Positions 3,187-36,674 are shown, counted from the first letter of the stretch. The stretch: DNA of 38,912 bases from a virus (IMGVR_UViG_2740892107_000002); one strand, 5' to 3'. Numbers and translations: made by a program. Notes: generated from the sequence alone by a model not told the origin.

Positions 3187-4641
3187 TCACGCCGCCCTCA
3201 CGATATAGTTAAATGCGATATTGCGGGGGCGAGCTGATACATAAGCCCACCAGTCATATCTTTGTGCACCTTTAGAGGATGCATCAAATATCCACTTTTT
3301 GCCATTTAAGACCCCCAGTTGATTAGAGGTTAAAGCGTCACCAAATCCGTATTGTGTAGAGCCGAGCGAACTGATATCTCCGGTATCATTATCATCAAAA
3401 CCGGATACGATAGTCCCTTCCTGAAATGAAAGTAGCGCACGCCCGGTATCAACCTTGCGACCACCGTCCCATCCACGGATAAACTCACCGCGCAAATCGG
3501 GAAGACGGAGGGTCGGGTAGACTCTGGCCAGAACAGGATATTGTTCTTTGGTGAACGTAGCTCCGTTGCACTGTAACCAGCCTGCTGGCGGTGTGGCGGT
3601 GGGCCATGGAACCGGTACACCAACAGGCAATGCAGAGCCTTCCCCCAAACCAAGGTAATTGAGGACATCTTTTATACTGCCCTTAGCGATAATAGCGCGA
3701 CCAATAGCTGTAAGGGTTGCCAGCTCTGCGCGGTCTGCTCCGGTAAAATAAGGCAACCGATCTGCTGCAGTGGCAAGTCCTGCCAGAGCAGTGAGCGTGG
3801 CATCTGCCGGTTGTTTTCCGTTTGCCAGATCGTATGCAGCCTTGACCGCTTTCGGTGTGGCGGCCAGTATTTCAGACGTGCTGTTGATGGCACTGCTCAA
3901 TTGTACGGTGCCTTTTGCCGTCAGCGAGGCAGCAGGCACTCCCGTTATCTGACTCCACGGGTGAGTGTGGCTGACGGGCGCCTTGCCGGCTGCAAGGTCG
4001 TATGCAGCCTTGACGGCCTTTGGTGTGGCGGCCAGCGTTTCAGAGGTGCTGTTGGTGTCACTGCTCAATTGTACGGTGCCTTTTGCCGTCAGCGAGGCAG
4101 CAGGCACTCCCGTTATCTGACTCCACGGGTGAGTGTGGCTGACGGGCGCCTTGCCGGCTGCAAGGTCGTATGCAGCCTTGACCGCCTTCGGCGTGGCAGC
4201 CTCAGTTTCTGATTGACTGTCCGTGGCGCTGCTCAGTTGTACGGTGCCTTTTGCCGTCAGCGAGGCAGCAGGCACTCCCGTTATCTGACTCCACGGGTGA
4301 GTATGGCTGACGGGGGCCTTGCCGGCAGCCAGGTCATATGCAGCCTTGACGGCCTTTGGTGTGGCGGCCAGCGTTTCAGAGGTGCTGTTGGTGGCACTGC
4401 TCAGTTGGGTGAACCCCTTAGCTGTCAGTGTCGCGTCCGGGTGGTTACGGGAACGTACGTGTTCAGCCAGTGACTGTGCGGCTTCCTCCGTTTTTTTCTT
4501 CAGCCATTTCGTCCTGTTTGCCAGTTGCCGGGGGGCTCGATTTGATATCCCGTCTGCACCACCCAGAACCGGATCTGATGTCTCCAGTTGATAGATATTT
4601 TCTTCCCACTTTTCTGTTTCATTCAGGTTTCCCATAATCAA
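3187..4641 (-). CDS. tail fibre protein (Mu S-like), constant N-terminal part fused to currently expressed variable C-terminus A
   Basis: 484 aa; four tandem copies of a 56-aa repeat (LTAKGTVQLSSATNSTSETLAATPKAVKAAYDLAAGKAPVSHTHPWSQITGVPAAS), a motif recalled from enterobacterial side tail fibres; C-terminus shares the GEGSALPVGVPVPW...RPRNIAFNYIVRAA frame with the cassettes. Confidence 0.88.
   Translation of the reverse strand: MIMGNLNETEKWEENIYQLETSDPVLGGADGISNRAPRQLANRTKWLKKKTEEAAQSLAEHVRSRNHPDATLTAKGFTQLSSATNSTSETLAATPKAVKAAYDLAAGKAPVSHTHPWSQITGVPAASLTAKGTVQLSSATDSQSETEAATPKAVKAAYDLAAGKAPVSHTHPWSQITGVPAASLTAKGTVQLSSDTNSTSETLAATPKAVKAAYDLAAGKAPVSHTHPWSQITGVPAASLTAKGTVQLSSAINSTSEILAATPKAVKAAYDLANGKQPADATLTALAGLATAADRLPYFTGADRAELATLTAIGRAIIAKGSIKDVLNYLGLGEGSALPVGVPVPWPTATPPAGWLQCNGATFTKEQYPVLARVYPTLRLPDLRGEFIRGWDGGRKVDTGRALLSFQEGTIVSGFDDNDTGDISSLGSTQYGFGDALTSNQLGVLNGKKWIFDASSKGAQRYDWWAYVSARPRNIAFNYIVRAA
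3640..3665. other. gix/hix-like invertase crossover site 3 (approximate), inside the expressed tail-fibre gene, inverted relative to sites 1 and 2
   Basis: Plus strand TTCCCCCAAACC-AA-GGTAATTGAGGA; same left half site and AA core as sites 1 and 2; falls at the constant/variable junction of the fibre (..NYLGLGEGSALP..). Confidence 0.6.
3815..4428. repeat. tandem 168-bp repeats (about 3.6 copies) inside the tail-fibre gene
   Basis: Near-identical DNA blocks recur with a 168-bp period, encoding the 56-aa repeat; they generate spurious antisense ORFs (3811..4212, 4213..4473). Confidence 0.85.
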
Positions 4642-6650: not shown

Positions 6651-6704
6651 GGGGGCAGTATTGCCCCCGTGCGGGAACGCTGATATTAAAGGCGTTTAAA
6701 AAGC

Positions 6705-12719: not shown

Positions 12720-12794
12720 GATTGTGCTCCTGTGTAAGTTCAGGGCAGTATGTCGGGAGAAGCGCGTGACGGATATTAAAGGAGATTAAGAAGA

Positions 12795-18652: not shown

Positions 18653-18708
18653 GTTGTCGGAGACAGTTTGTGAGAAATGCAGGCCCGGCGATTTTAATCT
18701 GCTTTAGA
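18653..18708 (-). promoter_or_regulatory. candidate late promoter (PI-like): TAAAAT -10 with conserved downstream CTGTCTCC box
   Basis: 213-bp gap upstream of the protease gene; minus-strand TTAAAATCG-N-CTGTCTCC with the same 24-nt spacing as the element upstream of the lysis operon. Confidence 0.5.
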
Positions 18709-25755: not shown

Positions 25756-26106
25756 TTAAAGCCCCATCGCAACAGCCAGGCAGACCGCTGCAACAATCAG
25801 TGCACGGCGGATTAACGCAGCAGAAAACACCAGGTGAAGGCCGGTCTGTACCGGGAAACGCCCTTCAGCCATCAGCCTGTCGTCATGTTTCAGGTACTGA
25901 CCGGGACGGGCTTTGGGGAAGAGCGAACGGTCAAGCCAGTAACCCAGCACTGCTGCCAGCGTGATGAGTGCCAGCTTGTAGATCACAACAGGCAGCTGCT
26001 GTGGTGAGACCAGAGCGATGGTGCCCAGCAACAGCACTGAGGTCAGCAGCCAGCCGCTGAGGCGAGGTTTTTTAACAGGGGGAATGAATTTTTTCAGTTT
26101 TTTCAT
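25756..26106 (-). CDS. holin-like membrane protein
   Basis: MKKLKKF... with several predicted TM segments; AAGGAG 6 nt upstream of ATG 26106; first gene of the lysis cassette. Confidence 0.6.
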   Translation of the reverse strand: MKKLKKFIPPVKKPRLSGWLLTSVLLLGTIALVSPQQLPVVIYKLALITLAAVLGYWLDRSLFPKARPGQYLKHDDRLMAEGRFPVQTGLHLVFSAALIRRALIVAAVCLAVAMGL

Positions 26107-26119
26107 GTGTGTCTCCTTA

Positions 26120-26175
26120 TCTGGTGGAGACAGCATCACAAATACAGGGCGCGAAGGATTTTAAAGCGCGTTAAG
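26120..26175 (-). promoter_or_regulatory. candidate late promoter (Plys-like): TAAAAT -10 with conserved downstream CTGTCTCC box
   Basis: Minus-strand TTTAAAATCC-N-CTGTCTCC-N7-AAGGAG-ATG; same architecture and spacing as the element at 18653..18708; poor -35 suggests activator dependence. Confidence 0.5.
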
Positions 26176-26236
26176 AGAGCCGGGGATACGGGATGTGCAG
26201 GATAAACGATGAATTATTCACAGAGGAGAATACGAT

Positions 26237-26965
26237 ATGACGCAGACACTGAATCCGGTCATCACTGTCACCGTGTCCGGTCCTGTGGGCAGCGGTAAAA
26301 GTTACGTACTGGCGCGAATAGAGGAAGTGGTGAAACAGGAATTCGGAAACAGCGTCATTGTCGACGCCGCAGACGTGGACGGTGAGCGCCGTATGAGTGG
26401 GGATGATCTGAGCACATGGCAGAAACCACGGGCTGGCACAGTGATCAGGCTGGAGGAATACACGGGACAGGGCCTGTTGTCATACGGCGAGGAGCGTATC
26501 TGTCGGACGAATGAGCTGCTGGATGTTATATGCCCCACGGGCCGGCAACCCTGGATACTGCCCGATGCACTGCATGCCACCATTGCGGCACTGATGACAG
26601 TTTACGATCAGGAGCTGCTCATGAAGGAGTTACGTAAACTCACTGGTCAGTCAACAGAATGTTGTTCGTCCCCGAAGTACGGCAAACAGGAACACATCCC
26701 GATTAACCAGCCTCCCCGGTTCTTCGACGAATACCTTCTGACACCGGAAAATAAAGCTGAGCATGAAGAGATCAAAGCGGCGTTGTTCCGGGAAATCAGG
26801 AAGATTGCTGAAATGCAACTGGAGGGCGGGCTGGACAGAGTGATGGCGAGAGGAGAATGGGCATCGCTGTTTGAAAGAGTTTCCCCGGAATTACTTCCCC
26901 TCGCACTGGCTATCGGGATTATGCAGACAGCGGATAAACCTCACTTACGTTCATTAAACACGTAA
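26237..26965 (+). CDS. hypothetical protein with N-terminal P-loop (Walker A-like GPVGSGKS) motif; accessory gene
   Basis: 242 aa; ATG with GAGGAG upstream; opposite orientation to the flanking late genes; no family recognised. Confidence 0.6.
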   Translation: MTQTLNPVITVTVSGPVGSGKSYVLARIEEVVKQEFGNSVIVDAADVDGERRMSGDDLSTWQKPRAGTVIRLEEYTGQGLLSYGEERICRTNELLDVICPTGRQPWILPDALHATIAALMTVYDQELLMKELRKLTGQSTECCSSPKYGKQEHIPINQPPRFFDEYLLTPENKAEHEEIKAALFREIRKIAEMQLEGGLDRVMARGEWASLFERVSPELLPLALAIGIMQTADKPHLRSLNT

Positions 26966-27345
26966 CGCATAATCCGGGATACGCATTCAGCGATGACTGC
27001 ATTTTCACCGGTTTTTACTGCATCCAGAAGTGACTCTTTAAATGGTACGGGCCGGGGCTGCAGAAAGGTCGGCATGGCATTGAGCAGACAGAGCGTTTTT
27101 TCCGTGAGGACGACATCAGCCGCTCCCACAGCCAGCAACTGAGAGTAACGAATATAGCTGTTATCCCGAAGCCATATCAGCGTATCAATAAAACACCGGC
27201 ACTTTTTCTGGTCGTGATCAACCTGGTCCGGGATATCGAAAAAACCAGAATAAATCAAAACCTGAGGTGCCGGATGCGTGTTCAGTAATCGGCAGAATAT
27301 TTTGCCGGTGAGTACATAAAAATCATCATTTAAGGAGTGCATCAT
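26941..27345 (-). CDS. hypothetical protein (accessory, lower GC)
   Basis: 134 aa; ATG 27345 overlaps the divergent 71-aa ORF start by 2 nt; 3' end overlaps the P-loop gene convergently. Confidence 0.4.
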   Translation of the reverse strand: MMHSLNDDFYVLTGKIFCRLLNTHPAPQVLIYSGFFDIPDQVDHDQKKCRCFIDTLIWLRDNSYIRYSQLLAVGAADVVLTEKTLCLLNAMPTFLQPRPVPFKESLLDAVKTGENAVIAECVSRIMRYVFNERK

Positions 27346-27559
27346 GAATCCCCGATTAACGTTAACAGAACATCAGCGCCGTGCTGAAGCAGTGAACAAT
27401 GTTCTGGAAGATATTATCCGGTTATACCGCGGAGAACTGAGTGTCTGTCGTGCCGCTTTTCATTTTCAGGGAATACAAAAGCAGTTTGATACTTCTGTTT
27501 TTGCAGAAGGTATTACTTATGCCCTGGACCGGATAAGGTCAGAAAATCGCCCCGGATAA
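27344..27559 (+). CDS. hypothetical small protein (accessory)
   Basis: 71 aa; strong AAGGAG RBS 7 nt upstream of the ATG. Confidence 0.45.
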   Translation: MNPRLTLTEHQRRAEAVNNVLEDIIRLYRGELSVCRAAFHFQGIQKQFDTSVFAEGITYALDRIRSENRPG

Positions 27560-27615
27560 TCCCTAAACCACATTAACAGAAATCCCGCCATCCCTGCCGC
27601 ATCATGAAAGAACGA

Positions 27616-27643
27616 CCAGCCCGGCACCCGAAAGCCGGGCTGG
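27616..27643. other. 10-bp perfect GC-rich hairpin (CCAGCCCGGC-loop-GCCGGGCTGG) in an intergenic gap
   Basis: Inverted repeat between the 71-aa ORF and the methylase gene; possible terminator or RNA element. Confidence 0.3.
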
Positions 27644-27749
27644 TCATCGCCCCACAGGAATGCGCTGTGAGCCGACCAAGGTTCAGTCAGTCTCGCGAGA
27701 CCTGACCAGACTGCCATATTTTTTAATAATTGTAAAAGGCTTGCAGATT

Positions 27750-28514
27750 ATGAAAATGCAGACATTACCCATCGTGCCGTGGATTGGTGGCAAACGCCGC
27801 CTTGCAAAACACATTCTGCCGCTGTTTCCGGCGCATGAATGTTATGTGGAGCCGTTTTGTGGGGCAGCAGCGCTCTATTTTCTTAAGACACCCGGCAAGA
27901 TCGAAGTCATCAATGATATCAACGGTGAACTGGTGAATCTGTACCGGGTGGTAAAGCATCACCTGGAAGAATTTGTCCGCCAGTTCAAATGGGCGCTGGT
28001 CAGCCGTCAGATCTACAAATGGCTGCAGATCACCCCGGAAGAAACACTGACGGATATCCAGCGTGCGGCACGGTTCTACTACCTTCAGAAGCAGGCGTTT
28101 GGCGGCAAGGTGGCAGAGCACAGCTTCGGTACCTCCACCACATCCCCGCCACGCTTCAACCTGCTACGTATTGAAGAAGAACTGTCAGCGGCACACCTGC
28201 GGCTTTCCAGAACAGTCATAGAACACATGGACTGGCAACAGTGCATTGAGCGTTATGATCGTCCGCACACGCTGTTCTACTGCGACCCACCGTACCTGGG
28301 TACGGAAGGCTATGGTGTGGATTTTCCTGAAGGGAACTACTCGCGGCTGGCAGAGCTGGCCCGGTGCATCAGAGGAAAAATGATAATTTCGGTGAACGAC
28401 ATCCCGCAGATGCGCGAGGTGTTCACTGGACTGAACATACAGACAGTGAATATCAACTACAGTCTGGCGGGTAAACCCACGCCGCGCCGTGAACTGCTAA
28501 TCTGCAACTTCTGA
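27750..28514 (+). CDS. DNA N6-adenine methyltransferase (Dam family), orphan
   Basis: EPFCGAAALYF (motif I-like) and CDPPYLG (DPPY catalytic motif); ATG 27750 chosen over the upstream extension; no adjacent restriction endonuclease candidate. Confidence 0.8.
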   Translation: MKMQTLPIVPWIGGKRRLAKHILPLFPAHECYVEPFCGAAALYFLKTPGKIEVINDINGELVNLYRVVKHHLEEFVRQFKWALVSRQIYKWLQITPEETLTDIQRAARFYYLQKQAFGGKVAEHSFGTSTTSPPRFNLLRIEEELSAAHLRLSRTVIEHMDWQQCIERYDRPHTLFYCDPPYLGTEGYGVDFPEGNYSRLAELARCIRGKMIISVNDIPQMREVFTGLNIQTVNINYSLAGKPTPRRELLICNF

Positions 28515-28520
28515 AACAAA

Positions 28521-28545
28521 ACCGGAAAGCACAATGCTTTCCGGT
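28521..28545 (-). terminator. rho-independent terminator (11-bp stem) downstream of the repressor gene, possibly bidirectional
   Basis: ACCGGAAAGCA-CAA-TGCTTTCCGGT; on the minus strand it is followed by TTTGTTT; lies between the convergent Dam-like and repressor genes. Confidence 0.6.
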
Positions 28546-28630
28546 AAACCAAACAACTTCCACTATGTCACTGGCGATGTTTTCTGAAAGCATCCAGATC
28601 AACCACCTGTCCTTTGTGTCCGGGTCAGTA

Positions 28631-28987
28631 TCAGCCTGCGATTTTTCCTGGTTTTGGCTGAGTATAGAATCGCCCAATCTCAAGAAATGAGCGTTGTTGG
28701 TCTGGTGTCATGTCGTCAAAAGTATCTATTAGTTTTTGTTTTTCTGGGGAAATTTGATTCTGGTTTCTAGTCATACCATCTGTGCTCATTCCAGTGAGCA
28801 ACCAATTTACATCAACATTAAACTCTTGATGCATCTTTAACAGAAACTCCCCTCCAGGCATCGCCTTTCCATTTTCAATCTGACTGATACCACCATTAGA
28901 AATACCTAAACGAGCTGCAAATTCTCTCTGGTTCAACCCTGCTTTCTTCCTCACAGAAATAACGCGCTCTCCTATATCTTTGCTCAT
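28631..28987 (-). CDS. prophage repressor (XRE-family HTH, Mu c analogue)
   Basis: N-terminal HTH (LNQREFAARLGISNGGISQIENGK); divergent from the early operon; low-GC gene; operator half-site overlaps its start codon. Confidence 0.75.
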   Translation of the reverse strand: MSKDIGERVISVRKKAGLNQREFAARLGISNGGISQIENGKAMPGGEFLLKMHQEFNVDVNWLLTGMSTDGMTRNQNQISPEKQKLIDTFDDMTPDQQRSFLEIGRFYTQPKPGKIAG

Positions 28988-29269: not shown

Positions 29270-29321
29270 ATATTTTGAGTCTTTGTAAAAGGTTATCACA
29301 TATCGCAAAAGAGGTATGCAG

Positions 29322-29640: not shown

Positions 29641-30561
29641 ATGGGACGTACCAAATCACCGATTAACACTGAACTGAACGCCGATGTACCGCTGTCGGAT
29701 GATCTCAACGTCAGCCTGAATGCCATGACACAGCATCGCATGGAGATCATGCAGCAGTTTGGTGATGGACTGCCTTATGAACGTGAACGCATCGTTCACG
29801 AAGCACGTTTTTATATGGCGCAGAGTGCTGAATCTATGTTGGAAGCGGGTAAGCGGCTGATCATCTTAAAAGAAAATGAACCGCATGGTGATTTCACAAA
29901 TATTCTGGAAAACGACCTCGGATTAGCACCACAGGTAGCTCGTCGCATGATGCAGGCCAGCGTGAAATTTCTCGGCAATGGAGATGAACAGCCAAAACGC
30001 TCAGCGCTGAGCGTTTTGGGAAAAACCAAGTTATATGAACTGATGGTTCTGGATGACGAAGAACTCGACGCATTAGCTGATGGTGGAACCGTCGCCGGTG
30101 CAACGCTTGATGATATTGATCGCATGACCAGCCGCGAACTGAAGGCCGCCCTGCGTGAAGCGCGCGAAACCAACGCAGCTCAGCAACAGGTGCTTGCCGG
30201 AAAGGACGAAAAAATCAACGAACTGGCCACAAAACTGGAGAAGAAATCGCGCCTGCAACCTCCGCCGCCAGACGAAGAACTGAAAAAATTGCGGGCGGAA
30301 GTGACGGCATTAGCGGTTGAGGCCGAATCGGCTATCGCCGTCCGGCTGTCCAGTGTTTTTGAGACCCTGTGTGAATACTGCACCAAAAACATGATCGATA
30401 CCCCCAGAGATTTCATGGCCGGTCTGGTCTGCCAGATTGAACGCAGTGTTCATGCATTACGTGAGACGTTTGACCTTGAGGCCGCTCCATCGGGTAACGA
30501 TGCCCCCGCCTGGCTGACCGAACCGGAACCTGAAATCAACCGACCGGAGGATATGCAGTAA
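29641..30561 (+). CDS. hypothetical early protein (DUF3102-like, Mu-like phage family)
   Basis: 306 aa, AAGGAG RBS; acidic coiled-coil central region. Confidence 0.5.
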   Translation: MGRTKSPINTELNADVPLSDDLNVSLNAMTQHRMEIMQQFGDGLPYERERIVHEARFYMAQSAESMLEAGKRLIILKENEPHGDFTNILENDLGLAPQVARRMMQASVKFLGNGDEQPKRSALSVLGKTKLYELMVLDDEELDALADGGTVAGATLDDIDRMTSRELKAALREARETNAAQQQVLAGKDEKINELATKLEKKSRLQPPPPDEELKKLRAEVTALAVEAESAIAVRLSSVFETLCEYCTKNMIDTPRDFMAGLVCQIERSVHALRETFDLEAAPSGNDAPAWLTEPEPEINRPEDMQ

Positions 30562-30878
30562 TGAATACGAATAACACACAAAATACCCTGATGGACAGCC
30601 CGGAGGCACTGGGGCACGCACTGTGTAATCTGCTGCCGGAGATGGTGCAGGGTTTCCGCGTGGTGACCCCTTCCGGTGAAATCTGCGTACCCGCACAGGA
30701 GACGCACCCGTTTGTACTGACGATGGAGGTGATGCTGATGCAGCAGATAAGACGTCTGCAGAATCAGTCAGCATTACGCCCGGTAGTTGCACCGCAACCG
30801 GTAAATACCGTGGTGAAAACCTGCGATGGCGAAACACTGTGCGACCTCGCCAGAAAAATTGCCGCCAGAATCGGATAA
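30561..30878 (+). CDS. hypothetical protein
   Basis: 105 aa, GGAGG RBS, start overlaps the upstream stop. Confidence 0.5.
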   Translation: MNTNNTQNTLMDSPEALGHALCNLLPEMVQGFRVVTPSGEICVPAQETHPFVLTMEVMLMQQIRRLQNQSALRPVVAPQPVNTVVKTCDGETLCDLARKIAARIG

Positions 30879-30893
30879 CAGGGAAGACAAGCT

Positions 30894-32663
30894 ATGACCC
30901 CGGCACTGACTGAAAAACTGGTTGAAACAGCCCGCGCGGCACGTGACGCGGGGCATGGTAAACGCGGTGCAATATACGACGCTGCCTGTGCTGAACTTGG
31001 CATGTCCCGCGCCACTCTGCTGCGCAGGCTGAAGGAGGTATCTGTGACTGATAAACGCAAAAAACGCGCCGATGCCGGGCGCAGCGCCCTGACCCGCGAC
31101 GAAGCCGCGCTGATATCTGCCACACTGCGTGAGGCCACCCGCAAGAACGGTAAGCGTCTCTATTCCATCGCAGATGCAGTGGAAACCCTGCGGGCTAACG
31201 GCTTTATCACCGCAGGCAGAACAGATGAAACCACCAGTGAGTTTTTCCCGTTGTCTGAAGATGCCATCAGCCGTGCTCTGCGTAACTATGGCCTGCACCC
31301 GGAACAACTGGATGCCCCTGCACCACATACCGAAGTGGCCAGTCTGCATCCCAATCATGTCTGGCAGATTGACGCCTCACTCTGCACGCTTTACTACCTG
31401 AGCAATGGACATAAAGGGCTGCAGGTGATGGACAGCGCGAAGTTCTACAAGAACAAGCCCGCTAACCTTGCCCGTATCGCCAGTGACCGCGTGTGGAGTT
31501 ACGAGATTACCGACCATGCCAGCGGCTGGATTTACGTTGAGTATGTGACGGGCGCGGAATCAGGTGAGAACCTGTGTTCTGTGCTTATCAACGCCATGCA
31601 GGAGCGTGGCGGCGCAGACGTGCTGCACGGCGTGCCGAAAATACTCTATCTCGACCCCGGCTCGGCAAACACCGCGGGTATGACGAAAAACATGTGCCGC
31701 TCACTGGGCATCGACCTGATAGCGCACAAGCCGCATAACGCCCGCGCCACCGGACAGGTGGAAAAGGCGCGTGACATTATCGAACGCAAGCTGGAGCCGG
31801 GTCTGAAGTTCCGGCCGGTTCACAGTCTGGAAGAACTCAACGCGCTGGCCGCGAAATGGCGCAGCCACTTTAACGCCACGGCTGTTCACAGCCGCCACGG
31901 TAAAACCCGCACGGATATCTGGCTGAAGATTACTGCTGAGCAGCTGAAAAAAGCGCCTTCCGTTGAGGTATGTCGTGAACTGGCTGTGGCGGCACCAGAA
32001 CTCCGCAAAGTCACGCCAAAACTTCGTGTCTCGTTCCGGGGCACTGAATTTGACGTATCAACGGTACCGGGCGTACTGGTTGGTGAAAAACTGATGATTA
32101 CCCGTAACCCATGGCGCAGCGATGTGGCACAGGTGGTTCTGACCGGTGAGGACGGCCACGAGACGTTCTTCCTGGTCGAAGAGGTCAGAAAGAACGAGTT
32201 TGGCTTTGCTGAAGGCGCGGCGGTATTTGGCGAAAGTTACAAAGCCCTGCCGGAAACCCCGGCACAGATGGCGGCAAAAGAAACCGAAGCGCTGGTTACC
32301 GGTACAGACAACGCCGCAGATGCAGCCGCCGCACGCAAGGCGAAGGCGCTGCCGTTCGGCGGGCGGCTTGACCCGTATAAACATATCGACGACACCACAC
32401 TTCCGGCCTATATGCCGAAGCGTGGTCAGGCCTCTGACGTACGCGGGCCGCGCACTGAACAACGTCCCATGACTCATGTGGAGGCCGCGAAAGCCCTGCG
32501 CGATAAGTTCAGCGCCGACGGCCTTACCTGGACGCCGGAACATTACCGCCAGTTAACGGCACAGTACCCGGACGGCGTACCGGAAGCCGCACTGGATGAA
32601 GTCATGGCCACGCTGACCACACCGGCCCGCAGCAGTGTTATCAGCATTGTTAACGGCAACTGA
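30894..32663 (+). CDS. DDE transposase (Mu A analogue, integrase-core rve fold)
   Basis: 589 aa; N-terminal DNA-binding region followed by a catalytic core (...WQIDASL...YLDPGSANTA...), followed by a MuB-like ATPase gene. Confidence 0.85.
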   Translation: MTPALTEKLVETARAARDAGHGKRGAIYDAACAELGMSRATLLRRLKEVSVTDKRKKRADAGRSALTRDEAALISATLREATRKNGKRLYSIADAVETLRANGFITAGRTDETTSEFFPLSEDAISRALRNYGLHPEQLDAPAPHTEVASLHPNHVWQIDASLCTLYYLSNGHKGLQVMDSAKFYKNKPANLARIASDRVWSYEITDHASGWIYVEYVTGAESGENLCSVLINAMQERGGADVLHGVPKILYLDPGSANTAGMTKNMCRSLGIDLIAHKPHNARATGQVEKARDIIERKLEPGLKFRPVHSLEELNALAAKWRSHFNATAVHSRHGKTRTDIWLKITAEQLKKAPSVEVCRELAVAAPELRKVTPKLRVSFRGTEFDVSTVPGVLVGEKLMITRNPWRSDVAQVVLTGEDGHETFFLVEEVRKNEFGFAEGAAVFGESYKALPETPAQMAAKETEALVTGTDNAADAAAARKAKALPFGGRLDPYKHIDDTTLPAYMPKRGQASDVRGPRTEQRPMTHVEAAKALRDKFSADGLTWTPEHYRQLTAQYPDGVPEAALDEVMATLTTPARSSVISIVNGN

Positions 32664-32673
32664 GGAGGGAAAC

Positions 32674-33840
32674 ATGCTGGTACTGAAGCAGCAACTGAAA
32701 GAGGCCCGTATTCCACAGGCGGTGGTGGCGAGAGCTGTCGATGTTTCTGAGGCCACGCTGGCCCAGATTGTGAATCATAACGCGTGGCCCCGCACCAGCC
32801 CCGGAGAAGTGCGCCGGCGTCTTGCGTCCTGGCTGGAAAGTCAGGGGATTGATACAACGAAGAGTTTTGATGCTGTACAGGGCGCGGCCACGCCCCGTAC
32901 AGCGGGTACCACAGATAAAACGAGCCTCAGTGAGGAAGAGAATATGTTACTCAAAAAACAGGTGTTATTTCCAGCAACCAAAAAAGCGTTTGGTCTTTTC
33001 CGTGACCCGTTCGCCGACGAAGCCATGCAGGGTTCTGATGATGTGTTCACCACCCCGGATATTCGCTACGTGCGTGAGGCGTTGTACCAGACAGCCCGTC
33101 ATGGTGGGTTTATGGCCGTCATCGGTGAGTCCGGTGCGGGTAAATCCACGCTGCGCCGCGACCTGACTGAACGTATCAACCGCGAGAATGCGCCGGTAAT
33201 TGTTATCGAGCCATACATCATCGCTATGGAAGACAACGATGTGAAAGGGAAAACCCTGAAGGCAGCAGCGATTGCCGAAGCCATTATCAGTACCATCGCA
33301 CCACTGGAAAGCATCAGACGCAGTCAGGACGCCCGCTTTCGCCAGTTGCATCGCGTCCTGAAAGACAGCAGCCAGGCGGGGTTCAGCCACGTTCTGGTGA
33401 TTGAGGAGGCCCACAGTCTGCCCATTCCGACACTGAAACACCTCAAACGCTTTTTTGAGCTGGAGTCCGGTTTCAAAAAACTGCTGTCCATCGTGCTGAT
33501 TGGCCAGCCGGAACTGGCGACAAAACTGTCTGAACGCAATATGGAAGTCCGTGAAGTCGTTCAGCGCTGTGAGGTGGTCGAACTTCTGCCTCTGGACAAT
33601 AACCTTGAAGAGTTTCTGACGTTCAAACTGCAACGGGCCGGTAAACAACTGACGGACATTATGGACGCCAGCGCAGTGGATGCCATACGTGCCCGCCTGA
33701 GCAATCCGGGAAGTCATCGTAAAAATATGGTCAGCCTGCTGTATCCGCTGGCCGTCAGTAACCTGGTAATAGCCGCCATGAATCTGGCCGCTGAAATCGG
33801 GGTTCCACAGGTCAACGCTGACGTTGTCAAAGGGGTTTAA
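32674..33840 (+). CDS. transposition ATPase (Mu B / TniB-like AAA+)
   Basis: Walker A GESGAGKST, Walker B-like HVLVIEEAH; GGAGG RBS before ATG 32674; the track ORF starts earlier at 32635. Confidence 0.85.
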   Translation: MLVLKQQLKEARIPQAVVARAVDVSEATLAQIVNHNAWPRTSPGEVRRRLASWLESQGIDTTKSFDAVQGAATPRTAGTTDKTSLSEEENMLLKKQVLFPATKKAFGLFRDPFADEAMQGSDDVFTTPDIRYVREALYQTARHGGFMAVIGESGAGKSTLRRDLTERINRENAPVIVIEPYIIAMEDNDVKGKTLKAAAIAEAIISTIAPLESIRRSQDARFRQLHRVLKDSSQAGFSHVLVIEEAHSLPIPTLKHLKRFFELESGFKKLLSIVLIGQPELATKLSERNMEVREVVQRCEVVELLPLDNNLEEFLTFKLQRAGKQLTDIMDASAVDAIRARLSNPGSHRKNMVSLLYPLAVSNLVIAAMNLAAEIGVPQVNADVVKGV

Positions 33841-33842
33841 TA

Positions 33843-34112
33843 ATGAAATCCACCACAGGTATCAACCAGCAAATCAGCAAAGTGCAGTCAGCCATTATGG
33901 CGCTTAAGGCGACGAACACGGATGTACAAAGCATCACCATCAGGGGTAACAAACCTGTCATCCGCGTTTCCCGGAGTGCGCATTGCATGCGCATGCTTGA
34001 GCAGGGAAAGGCCTGTTATCTGTATACCGGTCATGACCACAGGGGACATTTCCGTCAGGGCGTTTTCGAACTGCACGGCTGTCGCGTCGTGTGGCCGGAA
34101 TCTTTGTGGTAA
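33843..34112 (+). CDS. hypothetical protein (Mu kil position)
   Basis: 89 aa immediately after the B-like gene. Confidence 0.45.
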   Translation: MKSTTGINQQISKVQSAIMALKATNTDVQSITIRGNKPVIRVSRSAHCMRMLEQGKACYLYTGHDHRGHFRQGVFELHGCRVVWPESLW

Positions 34113-34139
34113 TCAGCACAACAGGAGGAGTCATAAAAT

Positions 34140-34670
34140 ATGGCAAAAAGTACAAAAGGGGCAAAACGTATCAAAGCCGCAGCAGCACTCTGGGTGCCGG
34201 GGACACGCGAAGAGGTCATTGAGGGAATCAGACTGCTTGGTGACGCGCAACGTGAACTGGTCAGGGCTGAAACAGAAATGAATGACACCATTGGCGACAT
34301 CACTGCACGTTATGCCCCGCTCACCGAGAGCCTGAAAAAACGCATGGCCGAACTGCAGTCCGGTATCCAGACATGGTGTGAGGCGCACCGTGATGAACTG
34401 ACCGGCAACGGGAAGGTGAAGTTCGCTAACCTCACCACCGGCGAGGTGCAGTGGCGAAACCGTCCGCCGTCAGTCAGCATTCGCGGGGCGGATAATGTCA
34501 TTGAACTGCTGAGACGTCTGGGGCTTGAGCGCTTTATTCGTGTAAAAGAGGAAATAAATAAAGACGCTATCCTGAATGAAAAAGAGGCCGTGAAAAATAT
34601 TCCCGGTATTTCCATTAAAAGCGACATTGAGGATTTTTCAATAATTCCTTTTGAGCAGGATGTGCAGTAA
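34140..34670 (+). CDS. gam: host-nuclease inhibitor Gam (Mu Gam-like DNA end-binding protein)
   Basis: Strong similarity to Mu Gam as recalled (RIKAAAA..., WCEAHRDELT, RPPSVSIRG, LERFIRVKEEINKDAIL, DFSIIPFEQ); AGGAGG RBS. Confidence 0.9.
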   Translation: MAKSTKGAKRIKAAAALWVPGTREEVIEGIRLLGDAQRELVRAETEMNDTIGDITARYAPLTESLKKRMAELQSGIQTWCEAHRDELTGNGKVKFANLTTGEVQWRNRPPSVSIRGADNVIELLRRLGLERFIRVKEEINKDAILNEKEAVKNIPGISIKSDIEDFSIIPFEQDVQ

Positions 34671-34767
34671 ACACACCACGTTAATTATTTAATAAAAACA
34701 TTTTCTTTTTTATTCCGACGTCAGCGCCGCGGGCTTCTGCACGCCGGAAACAGAGGAGAATTAAATC

Positions 34768-34962
34768 ATGATATTTAAATGTATTCAGTGCGAGAGGGAT
34801 ATAACAGCCCTGCGTTTTCACAGCGCCATCGCCGTGATGTCCGGTAAATACCACATCCCTGCGGTACGCGTCACCCTGGTCTGCCCGTACTGCAGCCAGC
34901 ATTTTTCGGCAGACGTGCCCGTCATGGAATTCTCCCGCCCTGACAGGGAGGACTCGCAATGA
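34768..34962 (+). CDS. small zinc-ribbon protein (CxxC...CxxC)
   Basis: 64 aa with CIQC and CPYC pairs; AGGAGA RBS. Confidence 0.5.
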   Translation: MIFKCIQCERDITALRFHSAIAVMSGKYHIPAVRVTLVCPYCSQHFSADVPVMEFSRPDREDSQ

Positions 34963-35231
34963 TTACCCCACAGGAAGCACGACAGCGCACCCGAACCCTT
35001 GTTGAACACTATGTCAACGAGTGTGAATGCCGCGACCTCACCGATGTGAAGCACGTCCTGACGGCGCTAATCAGCATGACCGCTCAAGCCATTGTGGCGA
35101 CCAACGGAAAGGCGGCTGCCCTGCAGGTACTGGTGAACACACTAACCCACACGGCAGCGCATGAGGTGCCGTACCGGATGGAAACCACTGCAGAAGGCGG
35201 CCTGCACATCACCGTCAGCCGGAAGCACTGA
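34959..35231 (+). CDS. hypothetical protein
   Basis: 90 aa, GGAGG RBS, overlapping stop/start. Confidence 0.5.
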   Translation: MITPQEARQRTRTLVEHYVNECECRDLTDVKHVLTALISMTAQAIVATNGKAAALQVLVNTLTHTAAHEVPYRMETTAEGGLHITVSRKH

Positions 35232-35240
35232 GGGCGCGGC

Positions 35241-35537
35241 ATGACACGGAACACCATACTCACCCGCACCGCCCTCTACCGTCTGGCCCTGCAGCGTTTC
35301 GGGCCGGACGCACAGGCCCTGAAACTGACAGAAGAGGCCGCTGAACTGGCGGCCAGTGCTGCCCGCAATCTGAACGGACAGGGCAGCGAAAGCGACCTCG
35401 CGGCAGAGCTGGCAGACGTGGAAATCATGACAGAGCAATTGCGCCTTCAGGGGATGGACCGGCTGATTGACTTCCACAAACAGAAAAAACTGGAACGTCT
35501 GGCTGCACGACTGGGCGTGATTTACACGAACGAGTAA
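35241..35537 (+). CDS. MazG-like nucleotide pyrophosphohydrolase (small all-alpha NTP-PPase)
   Basis: 98 aa; EEAAELAASAARNL...ELADVEIM pattern typical of MazG-type EExxE/D metal-binding helices. Confidence 0.55.
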   Translation: MTRNTILTRTALYRLALQRFGPDAQALKLTEEAAELAASAARNLNGQGSESDLAAELADVEIMTEQLRLQGMDRLIDFHKQKKLERLAARLGVIYTNE

Positions 35538-35551
35538 CCGGGAGGCATTCA

Positions 35552-35767
35552 ATGGCTGACATACTCAGGGAAATCACCGCATGGATACTGATTCTTACTG
35601 GCCTGGCGACATGCCTCAGTGCGGGGGCAGCCCTGGCTGCCCTGCTGATGCACATAACAACACAGTGGTTATGGGAAAAGCTTAAAGCAGCATACAGCCT
35701 GAAAGAGCTGTCCGACGCTGTCCGGGCATGGAAACGGCAGAAAAATACCGGAGATACAGAACAATGA
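35552..35767 (+). CDS. small membrane protein
   Basis: 71 aa, one TM helix (WILILTGLATCLSAGAALAALL); GGGAGG RBS. Confidence 0.5.
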   Translation: MADILREITAWILILTGLATCLSAGAALAALLMHITTQWLWEKLKAAYSLKELSDAVRAWKRQKNTGDTEQ

Positions 35768-36447
35768 CAGACCAGAATAAACACATTGAGAAACTGAAAA
35801 AGTTGCTGGCGCTGGCCGCATCCGGCAACCCGCACGAGGCCGCTCTGGCACTGTGCCGAGCCCGTAAACTGATGGATGTTCACGGCATCACACATTCCGA
35901 CATTGCTATGAGTGATATTGATGAAACCATCAGTCACTACTGGCCGACAGGCAGTCTCCGTCCACCGCGCTACATGCTGGGCCTGATGAACATCATCCGC
36001 GAGGTATTTGGTGTTAACTCCATCATTCACCCCGGCACGCATCCGTCTGTGGGGTTCTACGGCAACCGGGAACGTGCGGCACTGGCTGCATACACCTGGG
36101 AAGTGCTGGCCCGTCAGCTGAAAAAGGCGCGTCAGCAGTATATCAGTGCACAGAACAAAAGAATAAAAACCGCCACCCGCACCAGCCGTGGAGACCAGTT
36201 TGCCGAAGGCTGGGTGCTGGCCGTTATCAGTGAAATACAGTCCTTTGCCCTGACCGATGATGAGCGTGAACTGATGCAGCAGTGGCTGGAACATAAATAC
36301 CCGCAGACGCAAACCACCAGGGCGCGTAAACCGGGAAGAAGCCGCAATGGCGACGCCTCGCGCTATGCGGGGTTTCGTGAAGGGCAGAACGTCAGACTGC
36401 ACCGCCCGGTCAGTGGGCAGGAACAACAGAAACTGGAGGCCAGATGA
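35764..36447 (+). CDS. hypothetical early protein (DUF2786-like)
   Basis: Start at internal ATG 35764 (MTDQNKHIEKLKKLLALAASGNPHEAALA...) with RBS; the track ORF starts upstream at 35728. Confidence 0.5.
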   Translation: MTDQNKHIEKLKKLLALAASGNPHEAALALCRARKLMDVHGITHSDIAMSDIDETISHYWPTGSLRPPRYMLGLMNIIREVFGVNSIIHPGTHPSVGFYGNRERAALAAYTWEVLARQLKKARQQYISAQNKRIKTATRTSRGDQFAEGWVLAVISEIQSFALTDDERELMQQWLEHKYPQTQTTRARKPGRSRNGDASRYAGFREGQNVRLHRPVSGQEQQKLEAR

Positions 36448-36674
36448 TTACGCTATCAGGTAAAAGCCGGAAATTAAAAGCCTGCCGAATATCTGCCAGA
36501 TACCTTTTTGCCCGCGCCTTTTTTAAGAACGTCAGGCCGGGGATCACAATTGGTGTTATTGCCGGACGCGAACAGGTTGAAAAATACATGTCAGGTGCAT
36601 GGTGGAATAACGACCCTGTCATTGCTGCCCGTAATATTCATATCGAATGGGGAGGTATTCAGAATGACTACTGA
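36444..36674 (+). CDS. hypothetical protein
   Basis: 76 aa, GGAGG RBS, overlapping stop/start. Confidence 0.45.
   Translation: MITLSGKSRKLKACRISARYLFARAFFKNVRPGITIGVIAGREQVEKYMSGAWWNNDPVIAARNIHIEWGGIQNDY

Follow-up and report, generated by a model that had tools for sequence, protein, structure and literature searches.

A cargo slot between the holin and repressor genes of a BcepMu-like prophage holds a Dam-family methylase module and a separate, mobile winged-helix gene cassette

The 38,912-nucleotide viral sequence IMGVR_UViG_2740892107_000002 (hereafter the window, meaning the whole stretch of DNA analysed) is a transposable prophage, and its interval at 26,237–28,514, between the lysis genes and the repressor gene, encodes a 242-amino-acid (aa) protein with a phosphate-loop (P-loop) motif, a 134-aa winged-helix protein, a 71-aa protein and a Dam-like methylase. 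This island is a composite of two independent units, a Dam module and a cassette of the other three genes, placed in one slot, and the slot between holin and repressor is a true cargo hotspot of BcepMu-like prophages. The cassette could act as a moron in phage–phage or phage–host conflict, a reading whose chances we judge to be even. The new element is the uncharacterised but widespread cassette of a winged-helix gene and its partner, whereas the methylase is the part already known, being very probably M.EcoMIV.

At least five different contents lie between the same holin gene and the same repressor/Ner genes in Escherichia coli relatives, with shared flanks that are 90–97% identical. Besides the present island (the first variant), the slot contains the island plus an additional 126-aa gene in E. 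coli JB2, the Dam gene followed by genes for a 401-aa protein and an NA37 nucleoid-associated protein in E. coli N21 (locus L023, 3859–6074), a 158-aa protein carrying the N-terminal P-loop domain (N-domain) together with 193-aa and 328-aa proteins, in line with the repressor, in E. coli KUEC74 and NCTC9022, and a DUF2441 protein together with 203-aa and 328-aa proteins in E. coli 8178. Klebsiella KP12 has a 188-aa protein, Dam and a 177-aa protein in the slot, and relatives from Citrobacter, Salmonella diarizonae and Serratia have yet other contents. The position is also occupied in BcepMu, by gp18–gp20 between repressor gp17 and holin gp21, but these genes are unrelated, all run in the orientation of the repressor and include no methylase. 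The interval had been described beforehand as accessory, and the comparison of relatives supports this view, with contents swapped in E. coli and different again in other genera. The slot is thus a previously uncharted cargo hotspot in Enterobacterales BcepMu-like prophages, and its alternative contents are likewise all of unknown function.

PADLOC and Pfam searches of the cargo of the four alternative variants gave just a weak KwaA-like match, NA37 and DUF2441. The KwaA-like match belongs to the 401-aa protein of N21 (PADLOC, E 8e-5) and the NA37 assignment to its neighbour (Pfam, E 1e-80); both genes are oriented like the repressor, and the pair could be a Kiwa-like variant. In KUEC74, NCTC9022 and 8178 (L024, 1796–3454; L025, 1504–4107) the cargo is on the repressor strand, directly 3′ of the repressor gene, and its 193-aa, 203-aa, 328-aa and DUF2441 proteins have no PADLOC match. 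The overlap of the gene for the 328-aa protein with the end of the repressor gene is suggestive of lysogen expression.

The borders of the two units were defined by pairwise blastn of the window against N21 (L023), L004 and L025. Homology on the lysis side to cassette-less relatives stops at about 26173–26177, and the Dam module starts at 27604/27605, the cassette between them forming a discrete insertion (Table 1). In N21 the 1,427 bp of the cassette are replaced by about 32 bp, with flanks 97% and 90% identical. The Dam module is 75–90% identical in Klebsiella, Citrobacter, Salmonella and Serratia, while the block from holin to Dam is not conserved. E. coli N21, KP12, Citrobacter and Salmonella have the Dam module but none of the other three genes; locus L040 has the three cassette genes and no Dam, L037–L039 have only Dam fragments, and P2-like phages carry the winged-helix gene and its small neighbour as a pair with neither Dam nor the P-loop gene.

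Because the Dam module and the cassette occur apart, the four genes do not constitute one system, contrary to the preliminary description, which had seen in the island the best candidate for a single undescribed one. A single lysogen-expressed defence system, for example one of restriction–modification or BREX type with an ATPase, a methylase and two accessory proteins, might be suspected from the contiguity of the four genes in 494 E. coli genomes, from the P-loop motif adjoining the methylase and from the position of the slot beside the repressor. It is nevertheless very improbable: in addition to Dam without cassette in N21 and elsewhere and cassette genes without Dam in L040 and all P2-like loci, the island lacks a nuclease or any other effector, the P-loop domain spans 75 aa without a conserved Walker B residue, the PADLOC matches are to generic methyltransferase (MTase) models only, and the methylase is transcribed at a low level in the lysogen (Forde et al., 2015; PMC4659465).

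The core of the cassette is the gene for the 134-aa protein, for which AlphaFold2 (AF2) gives a confident, folded model with a winged-helix fold. A sequence profile of this family found nothing below E 0.1 in the PDB, and a fold search of BFVD with the model found nothing at E <= 0.001. Pfam, NCBIfam and PADLOC have no family for the 242-aa, 134-aa or 71-aa proteins, which match only PHROGs of unknown function; PADLOC-DB 2.0.0 gave zero matches for the 134-aa and 71-aa proteins, and an Rfam search of the island gave none. A literature search on DUF2513, the locus tags and the accessions returned nothing beyond Forde et al. (PMC4659465) and one comparative paper. The earlier remark that the two smaller proteins belong to no recognisable family therefore holds for Pfam, NCBIfam and PADLOC, but it missed that they are encoded by a conserved and mobile gene pair.

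The winged-helix family comprises 85 detectable clusters, all from Enterobacterales and all hypothetical. Its phage records are the P2-like Midge, ST147-VIM1phi7.1 and FSLSP004, at about 31% identity and always adjoining a divergent open reading frame (ORF) of 60–64 aa. When the 57 IMG/VR loci encoding a winged-helix relative were typed by marker genes, 43 were P2-like, with the pair between portal Q and gpA, 12 were BcepMu-like and 2 matched neither marker set; one of these two, L096, proved on inspection to be lambdoid, with the pair between the endolysin gene and Nu1. The pair is thus found in cargo sites of BcepMu-like, P2-like and lambdoid phages, and the cassette moves between late-region cargo sites of three phage types. 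About 9% of complete E. coli genomes (494/5426, many of them ST131) contain the cassette, whose proteins are labelled 'hypothetical' in every database, and the pair also occurs in numerous P2-like prophages from Salmonella, Klebsiella, Enterobacter, Citrobacter and Serratia.

The winged-helix gene and its partner start head to head within a shared CATG (Table 1). The same CATG is found in Serratia, Salmonella, Klebsiella and phage Midge, the exact 2-nucleotide (nt) overlap is kept in 43/43 P2-like IMG/VR loci, and the Shine-Dalgarno sequence of each gene lies inside the first codons of the other. Both genes are under purifying selection and are real coding genes. Their ORFs remain intact between genera at 29–53% identity (29% for the Serratia orthologue of the 71-aa ORF, likewise intact), the ratio of nonsynonymous to synonymous rates (dN/dS) is 0.07–0.29 for the winged-helix gene and below 1 in both, the proportion of nonsynonymous differences (pN) is below that of synonymous ones (pS) in all pairs of small partners, and codon positions 1 and 2 are more conserved than position 3 in both genes. 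The small partner evolves much faster, with 63% identity between Salmonella and Klebsiella versus 92% for the winged-helix protein. It could be argued that such short ORFs, lacking a Pfam or NCBIfam family and in one case (the 134-aa gene) left uncalled by the depositors of phage PhiKM, arose by chance in AT-richer DNA or are artefacts of annotation; the selection analyses exclude this, and the Shine-Dalgarno sequences of both genes and the confident folded model of the 134-aa protein also speak against it.

Several details of individual loci accompany this pattern. In L096 the pair (3751–4411) has a GH108-type endolysin/holin block on one side and the Nu1/A terminase genes on the other, and its two starts are 4 nt apart with no shared CATG. 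A Kluyvera P2-like prophage (L027, around 4001) has an intact winged-helix gene and the CATG, with a partner ORF of just 13 codons, so the partner can evidently be lost. In the P2-like hotspots of Klebsiella phage ST147-VIM1phi7.1 (L003, 4556–5792), L029 (1–3555) and L030 (852–3544), the pair has recognisable defence-type cargo as its neighbours: a reverse transcriptase resembling those of retrons, along with an XRE regulator; a YobI-type ATPase of 1326 aa; and an AAA_15/AAA_21 ATPase whose partner has 368 aa. In the window, an imperfect 24-nt direct repeat (AATCCC...ATTAACAGAA, 18/24 identical) at 27347–27370 and 27558–27581 brackets the 71-aa ORF nearly end to end, and a 10-bp palindrome, TTAACGTTAA (27356–27365), which is not conserved in Serratia, is located just upstream of the winged-helix Shine-Dalgarno sequence.

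The third cassette gene appears to be related to the pair through its C-terminus. The C-terminal 60 or so residues of the 242-aa protein (C-domain) exist as a free ORF of 89/102 aa in Serratia and also end two other N-domain proteins (L037, L040). In 4/4 BcepMu-like lineages the C-domain is accompanied by the converging, overlapping winged-helix gene with the small partner beyond, and the winged-helix pair is absent where the N-domain protein has another C-terminus (Citrobacter, Salmonella, KUEC74). The L096 partner is 40.7% identical over 54 aa to the C-domain of the window and 36–40% identical to the partners of L037 and L040, and hhalign aligns C-domain and partner with E 1.8e-4 and a probability of 0.49. 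These comparisons are suggestive, although not proof, of a C-domain that is paralogous to the 71-aa partner. The cassette could accordingly be pictured as a winged-helix core on the − strand, flanked on the + strand by two helical domains of about 60 aa, probably paralogous, one free and one fused.

The 242-aa protein as a whole is a mosaic fusion, with a mini P-loop domain at residues 1–75, low-confidence linkers and shuffled modules at about 80–170, and a helical domain at about 171–235. Its AF2 model has a predicted local distance difference test score (pLDDT) of 93–96 over residues 11–70 and below 50 at 80–95, 103–108 and 139–168. In an exhaustive HMMER search residues 1–76 alone were conserved beyond close relatives, and the N-domain of about 75 aa heads proteins of 73–364 aa with shuffled C-terminal modules, the stand-alone homologues having 73–90 aa. 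The protein does carry a Walker A motif, GPVGSGKS, of which G20 and K21 are invariant in the family. The acidic Walker B candidate, D43, is kept only in an enterobacterial subgroup and replaced across the wider family, and neither profile nor fold comparison revealed a full alpha/beta NTPase core. Against solved structures the N-domain profile aligns only with Walker A segments, those of ABC transporters and of a designed phosphate-loop protein; the Pfam matches of the protein (AAA_30, KAP, AAA_22) are all below the cut-offs, and PADLOC gave only P-loop noise at E > 0.002. The N-domain probably binds phosphate or a nucleotide and is not a complete or canonical NTPase. The P-loop assigned in the preliminary description was thus real as a motif, but the protein is not a recognisable NTPase.

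An active P-loop NTPase of ABC, AAA or KAP kind that drives the function of the island is accordingly quite improbable. The perfect GxxGxGKS, the alignment of residues 1–75 with the ABC Walker A region and the designed protein, the sub-threshold Pfam matches and the name 'ABC transporter ATPase' given to some truncated homologues at NCBI would fit it; the restriction of conservation to 75 residues, the stand-alone homologues of 73–90 aa, an Asp after strand 2 that is not conserved, Pfam scores that all stay sub-cut-off and a remainder of low-confidence linkers and helices would not. The minimal or designed phosphate-loop protein (PDB 6c2u) and the Walker A segment of ABC proteins share with the N-domain the aligned beta-strand, GxxGxGK[ST] and helix; it differs from them as a natural unit of about 75 aa, found stand-alone or N-terminal in phage proteins, with neither the remaining NTPase core nor a conserved Walker B. 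If confirmed, it would give engineered minimal P-loop proteins a natural counterpart.

As to the spread of the N-domain, tblastn of phages and plasmids with the P-loop protein or the N-domain returned only copies of the same prophage, while N-domain proteins are encoded at the same position, divergent from the holin, in BcepMu-like prophages of Citrobacter and Salmonella. The genome-collection scan for the N-domain used a 5-sequence alignment as query. Distant homologues, either stand-alone with 80 aa or N-terminal in a larger protein, are present in unrelated metagenomic phage-like contigs (L034, 4001–4243; L035, 4001–4906), which indicates that the N-domain is not specific to BcepMu-like phages, and one metagenomic homologue adjoins dCTP deaminase and HD-domain genes.

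The Dam module, the other unit of the island, is what the slot usually contains in Enterobacterales as a whole. Its methylase matches Pfam PF02086 (MethyltransfD12) with 102 bits against a cut-off of 22 (E 6e-29), narrowly passes NCBIfam TIGR00571 (116.6 bits, cut-off 114.85) and matches the generic PADLOC model MTase_II (E 6e-112); its relatives in the PDB are DpnM and EcoDam (E 1e-17 to 1e-14), and the catalytic DPPY motif is present (...FYCDPPYLGTEGYG...). It is nonetheless distant from E. coli Dam, scoring 67 bits with the equivalog model NF008152 against a cut-off of 441. ORF, Pfam and PADLOC analyses of 25756–28987 yielded no nuclease-like ORF or domain with which it could form a restriction–modification system, and the methylase is solitary in every relative examined; on this point the earlier account of a Dam-like methylase with no partner nuclease was right.

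The methylase is not undescribed, as had been supposed, because it is very probably M.EcoMIV (EC958_1101), a D12 orphan methyltransferase of prophage Phi2 in the sequence type 131 (ST131) strain EC958 that is 100% identical to P423_04965 of JJ1886 (PMC4659465). JJ1887 and many ST131 genomes carry a sequence identical to the window, at about 1.03 Mb, and the phage of the window would then be Phi2 of EC958. Like M.EcoMIV and other orphan Dam-family methyltransferases, the enzyme is of the D12 class, has DPPY, is prophage-borne and lacks a nuclease, in the same ST131 context (PMC4659465). Transcription of M.EcoMIV was significantly below that of dam in mid-log LB cultures, and no methylation motif could be assigned to it (Forde et al., 2015; PMC4659465). 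Such low transcription argues against the suggestion that the methylase gene is lysogen-expressed cargo; through its identity with M.EcoMIV, the methylase is very probably essentially silent in the lysogen. It is probably made in lytic growth and methylates phage DNA, which would protect that DNA from restriction or modulate Dam-dependent host functions.

The Dam module opens with a hairpin of a perfect 12-bp stem, which has a counterpart in Serratia (L007, 4737–4770) as part of the conserved module and is probably an insulator or terminator for leftward transcription to the cassette and lysis genes. The repressor transcript in turn is closed by a terminator-like hairpin ahead of the island, and jointly the two hairpins would keep leftward read-through out of the cassette and the lysis genes (Table 1). 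A 29-nt direct repeat of 72% identity with the core TTGTAAAAGG connects the Dam promoter region (27720–27748) with the stretch between the Ner-like and IclR-type genes (29273–29301); this may be either a chance match or an operator common to both sites.

Our results raise the possibility that the cassette, an insertion flanked by the candidate late lysis promoter and the Dam module, forms a small regulatory circuit of its own. Given the shared CATG, the 5′ ends of the two mRNAs, including the ribosome-binding sites, must be complementary, and this would be expected to make their expression mutually antagonistic, as a small self-regulating toggle. The winged-helix protein would probably bind nucleic acid and probably interact with the partner domains, either controlling them or being controlled by them. 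Since the cassette is mobile among the cargo sites of three phage types, it is most likely a conflict moron (exclusion, defence or counter-defence) rather than a part of the phage's own development. A more specific and clearly tentative proposal, possible but on the unlikely side, is that the winged-helix protein and its head-to-head partner or partners are a new, widespread conflict module or bistable switch without an enzymatic domain, serving superinfection exclusion, defence or anti-defence, to which the N-domain, as a natural minimal P-loop domain for nucleotide or phosphate, would couple a ligand signal. If confirmed, the invariant CATG head-to-head start would be an unusual design for gene expression.

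A number of points weigh against this interpretation. The three cassette proteins match no PADLOC model and lack any enzymatic or effector domain; defence systems without one are unusual. Promoter scans in three lineages found no consistent sigma-70 site inside the cassette, and there is neither excess synonymous conservation at the CATG junction nor a clear embedded element; with no placed promoter and no such conservation, the toggle is argued from geometry. Sequence similarity between the small partners of P2-like phages and the 71-aa protein of the Mu-type cassette is undetectable, the paralogy of C-domain and partner is moderately supported (the hhalign value given above), and the co-occurrence of C-domain and winged-helix gene could merely reflect their overlapping 3′ ends. 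On the side of the Dam module, the equation with M.EcoMIV/EC958_1101 is drawn from the ST131 identity and the link between JJ1886 and JJ1887, and a role in restriction evasion is suggested by analogy.

Two other roles for the cassette should be considered. It might be a housekeeping regulator of the phage that times the lysis operon or Dam as a further immunity-like switch, in the manner of P22 immI mnt/arc; this seems unlikely. The winged-helix fold, the head-to-head geometry typical of switches, the candidate late lysis promoter directly beside the cassette and, in E. coli and Serratia, the position of the small partner upstream of Dam in the same orientation would suit such a regulator, but close relatives keep the lysis module, the late promoter and the Dam module without having the cassette, the pair stands beside unrelated genes in P2-like and lambdoid phages, and a hairpin separates the 71-aa gene from Dam. 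A toxin–antitoxin or addiction module, in which a toxic small helical protein is neutralised by an auto-regulating winged-helix protein for prophage stabilisation or abortive infection, is likewise improbable. The genes are divergent and share CATG instead of forming the co-directional operon of type II systems, searches of Pfam, PHROGs, PADLOC and fold space detected no toxin-like family or fold, and the winged-helix gene of Kluyvera persists with its 13-codon partner, notwithstanding the small proteins, the DNA-binding-type fold typical of antitoxins, the mobility of the cassette, the fast evolution of the partner and the resemblance of the complementary 5′ ends to type I antisense control.

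Among the known systems with which the cassette may be compared are the divergent two-repressor switches of temperate phages, such as P22 immI mnt/arc-ant, P2 C/Cox and 186 CI/Apl (face-to-face promoters), which like the cassette put a small protein with a DNA-binding fold and a very small protein back to back with overlapping transcription. The cassette differs from them in that its starts share CATG and hence leave no intergenic operator region, in that its fold is a winged helix and not ribbon-helix-helix or HTH_3, and in the second copy of the partner domain on the far side. From winged-helix domains of MarR/PadR type and Z-alpha type the 134-aa protein is set apart by an extra C-terminal helical pair and by belonging to no Pfam winged-helix family.

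With respect to location, experiments have established the gpA–gpQ locus of P2 as a reservoir of anti-phage systems (Rousset et al., 2022; PMC9122126), and a 2026 study recorded many genes of unknown function there (PMC13586616). The anti-phage hotspots of P2-like phages (gpA–gpQ, tin/old) and of P4-like satellites resemble the present slot in being short intervals with contents swapped among close relatives (PMC9122126, PMC13586616), and the P2 gpA–gpQ hotspot physically houses homologues of the winged-helix/small-ORF pair. Loci such as those that harbour the cassette have been a repeated source of new anti-phage systems. Unlike the P2 hotspots, the present slot is in a transposable BcepMu-like phage, between lysis genes and repressor, and its five E. 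coli contents have no PADLOC defence match save the weak KwaA-like one.

The prophage that carries the island has two arms diverging from a central region, as seen from the ORF map, Pfam and PHROGs. The late arm, on the − strand, reads leftward and ends in spanin, SLT endolysin and holin genes (25756–26106/26139), and the early arm reads rightward on the + strand, with Ner-like, IclR-type helix-turn-helix, DUF3102 and DDE transposase (30894–32663) genes. This divergent arrangement of early and late genes is the layout of BcepMu and not of Mu, and the island is 100% identical to Escherichia phage PhiKM of the genus Bcepmuvirus, which corrects the label 'Mu-type' of the preliminary description. 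Hundreds of E. coli chromosomes, of which many are ST131, likewise carry the island at 100% identity; 626/5426 complete E. coli genomes have a match, and in 494 at least 80% of its length is covered.

Other particulars given earlier stand: the four ORFs and the GPVGSGKS motif are where they had been placed, in agreement with the RefSeq annotation, and the 242-aa ORF is indeed on the strand opposite the late genes. The guanine-plus-cytosine (GC) content of the island is lower, as stated, at 0.514 versus 0.553 +/- 0.027 in prophage windows of equal size, with values as low only in windows overlapping the island or the repressor; by part, it is 0.46 in the 134-aa gene, 0.44 in the 71-aa gene and 0.50 in the cassette block. 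The statement that this was the only unexplained stretch of the prophage is not tenable, as many early genes are hypothetical as well.

Table 1. Positions of the cassette, the Dam module and neighbouring features in the window
Feature	Position	Strand	Remarks
Candidate late (Mor/C-type) promoter motif TTAAAATC	26157-26164	-	Lysis operon; at the end of the conserved lysis module
Cassette block	26178-27604		Three genes; discrete insertion of 1,427 bp (1.4 kb)
242-aa ORF	26237-26965	+	GPVGSGKS at residues 15-22
134-aa ORF	26941-27345	-	Winged-helix with C-terminal helical extension; 3′ end overlaps the 242-aa gene by 25 bp
Shared CATG	27343-27346		Start codons of winged-helix (-) and 71-aa (+) genes overlap by 2 nt
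71-aa ORF	27344-27559	+	Helical small partner; PHROG 4490
Dam module	27605-28516		
Hairpin, perfect 12-bp stem	27614-27645	-	T-rich tail on - strand only; z-score -4.15
Promoter-like site	27702-27730		Upstream of methylase; from promoter scan
Methylase ORF	27750-28514	+	RefSeq start 27750 (254 aa); frame open from 27660 (284 aa)
Terminator-like hairpin with T-tail	28521-28545	-	Just downstream of repressor gene
HTH_3/CI-type repressor	28631-28987	-	Pfam HTH_3 E 4.6e-15, Phage_CI_repr E 1.8e-5, PHROGs; right-hand border of the slot, context and not cargo

The motif TTAAWATC (extended form CTTTAAWATC) has 5 copies in the window versus 1.1 expected. Four copies on the − strand lie in the intergenic gaps that precede late-gene blocks (6682–6689, 12772–12779, 18690–18697 and 26157–26164), paralleling in number the four late promoters of Mu, and the motif is probably a Mor/C-dependent late promoter, a candidate assignment made from sequence. 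The lysis-side break in homology falls just past the last of these copies. The motif has no copy ahead of any + strand gene of the island, and a search for LexA boxes gave chance-level matches, none of them in regulatory regions of the island.

GATC is depleted across the window, with 105 sites observed versus 151.7 +/- 10.5 expected, and the 6.1 kb at 30397–36541, which contain the transposase and the remaining early operon, have no GATC at all, in a phage with its own Dam-family methylase. GATC-free regions have been noted in the mobile elements of EC958 more generally (Forde et al., 2015; PMC4659465).

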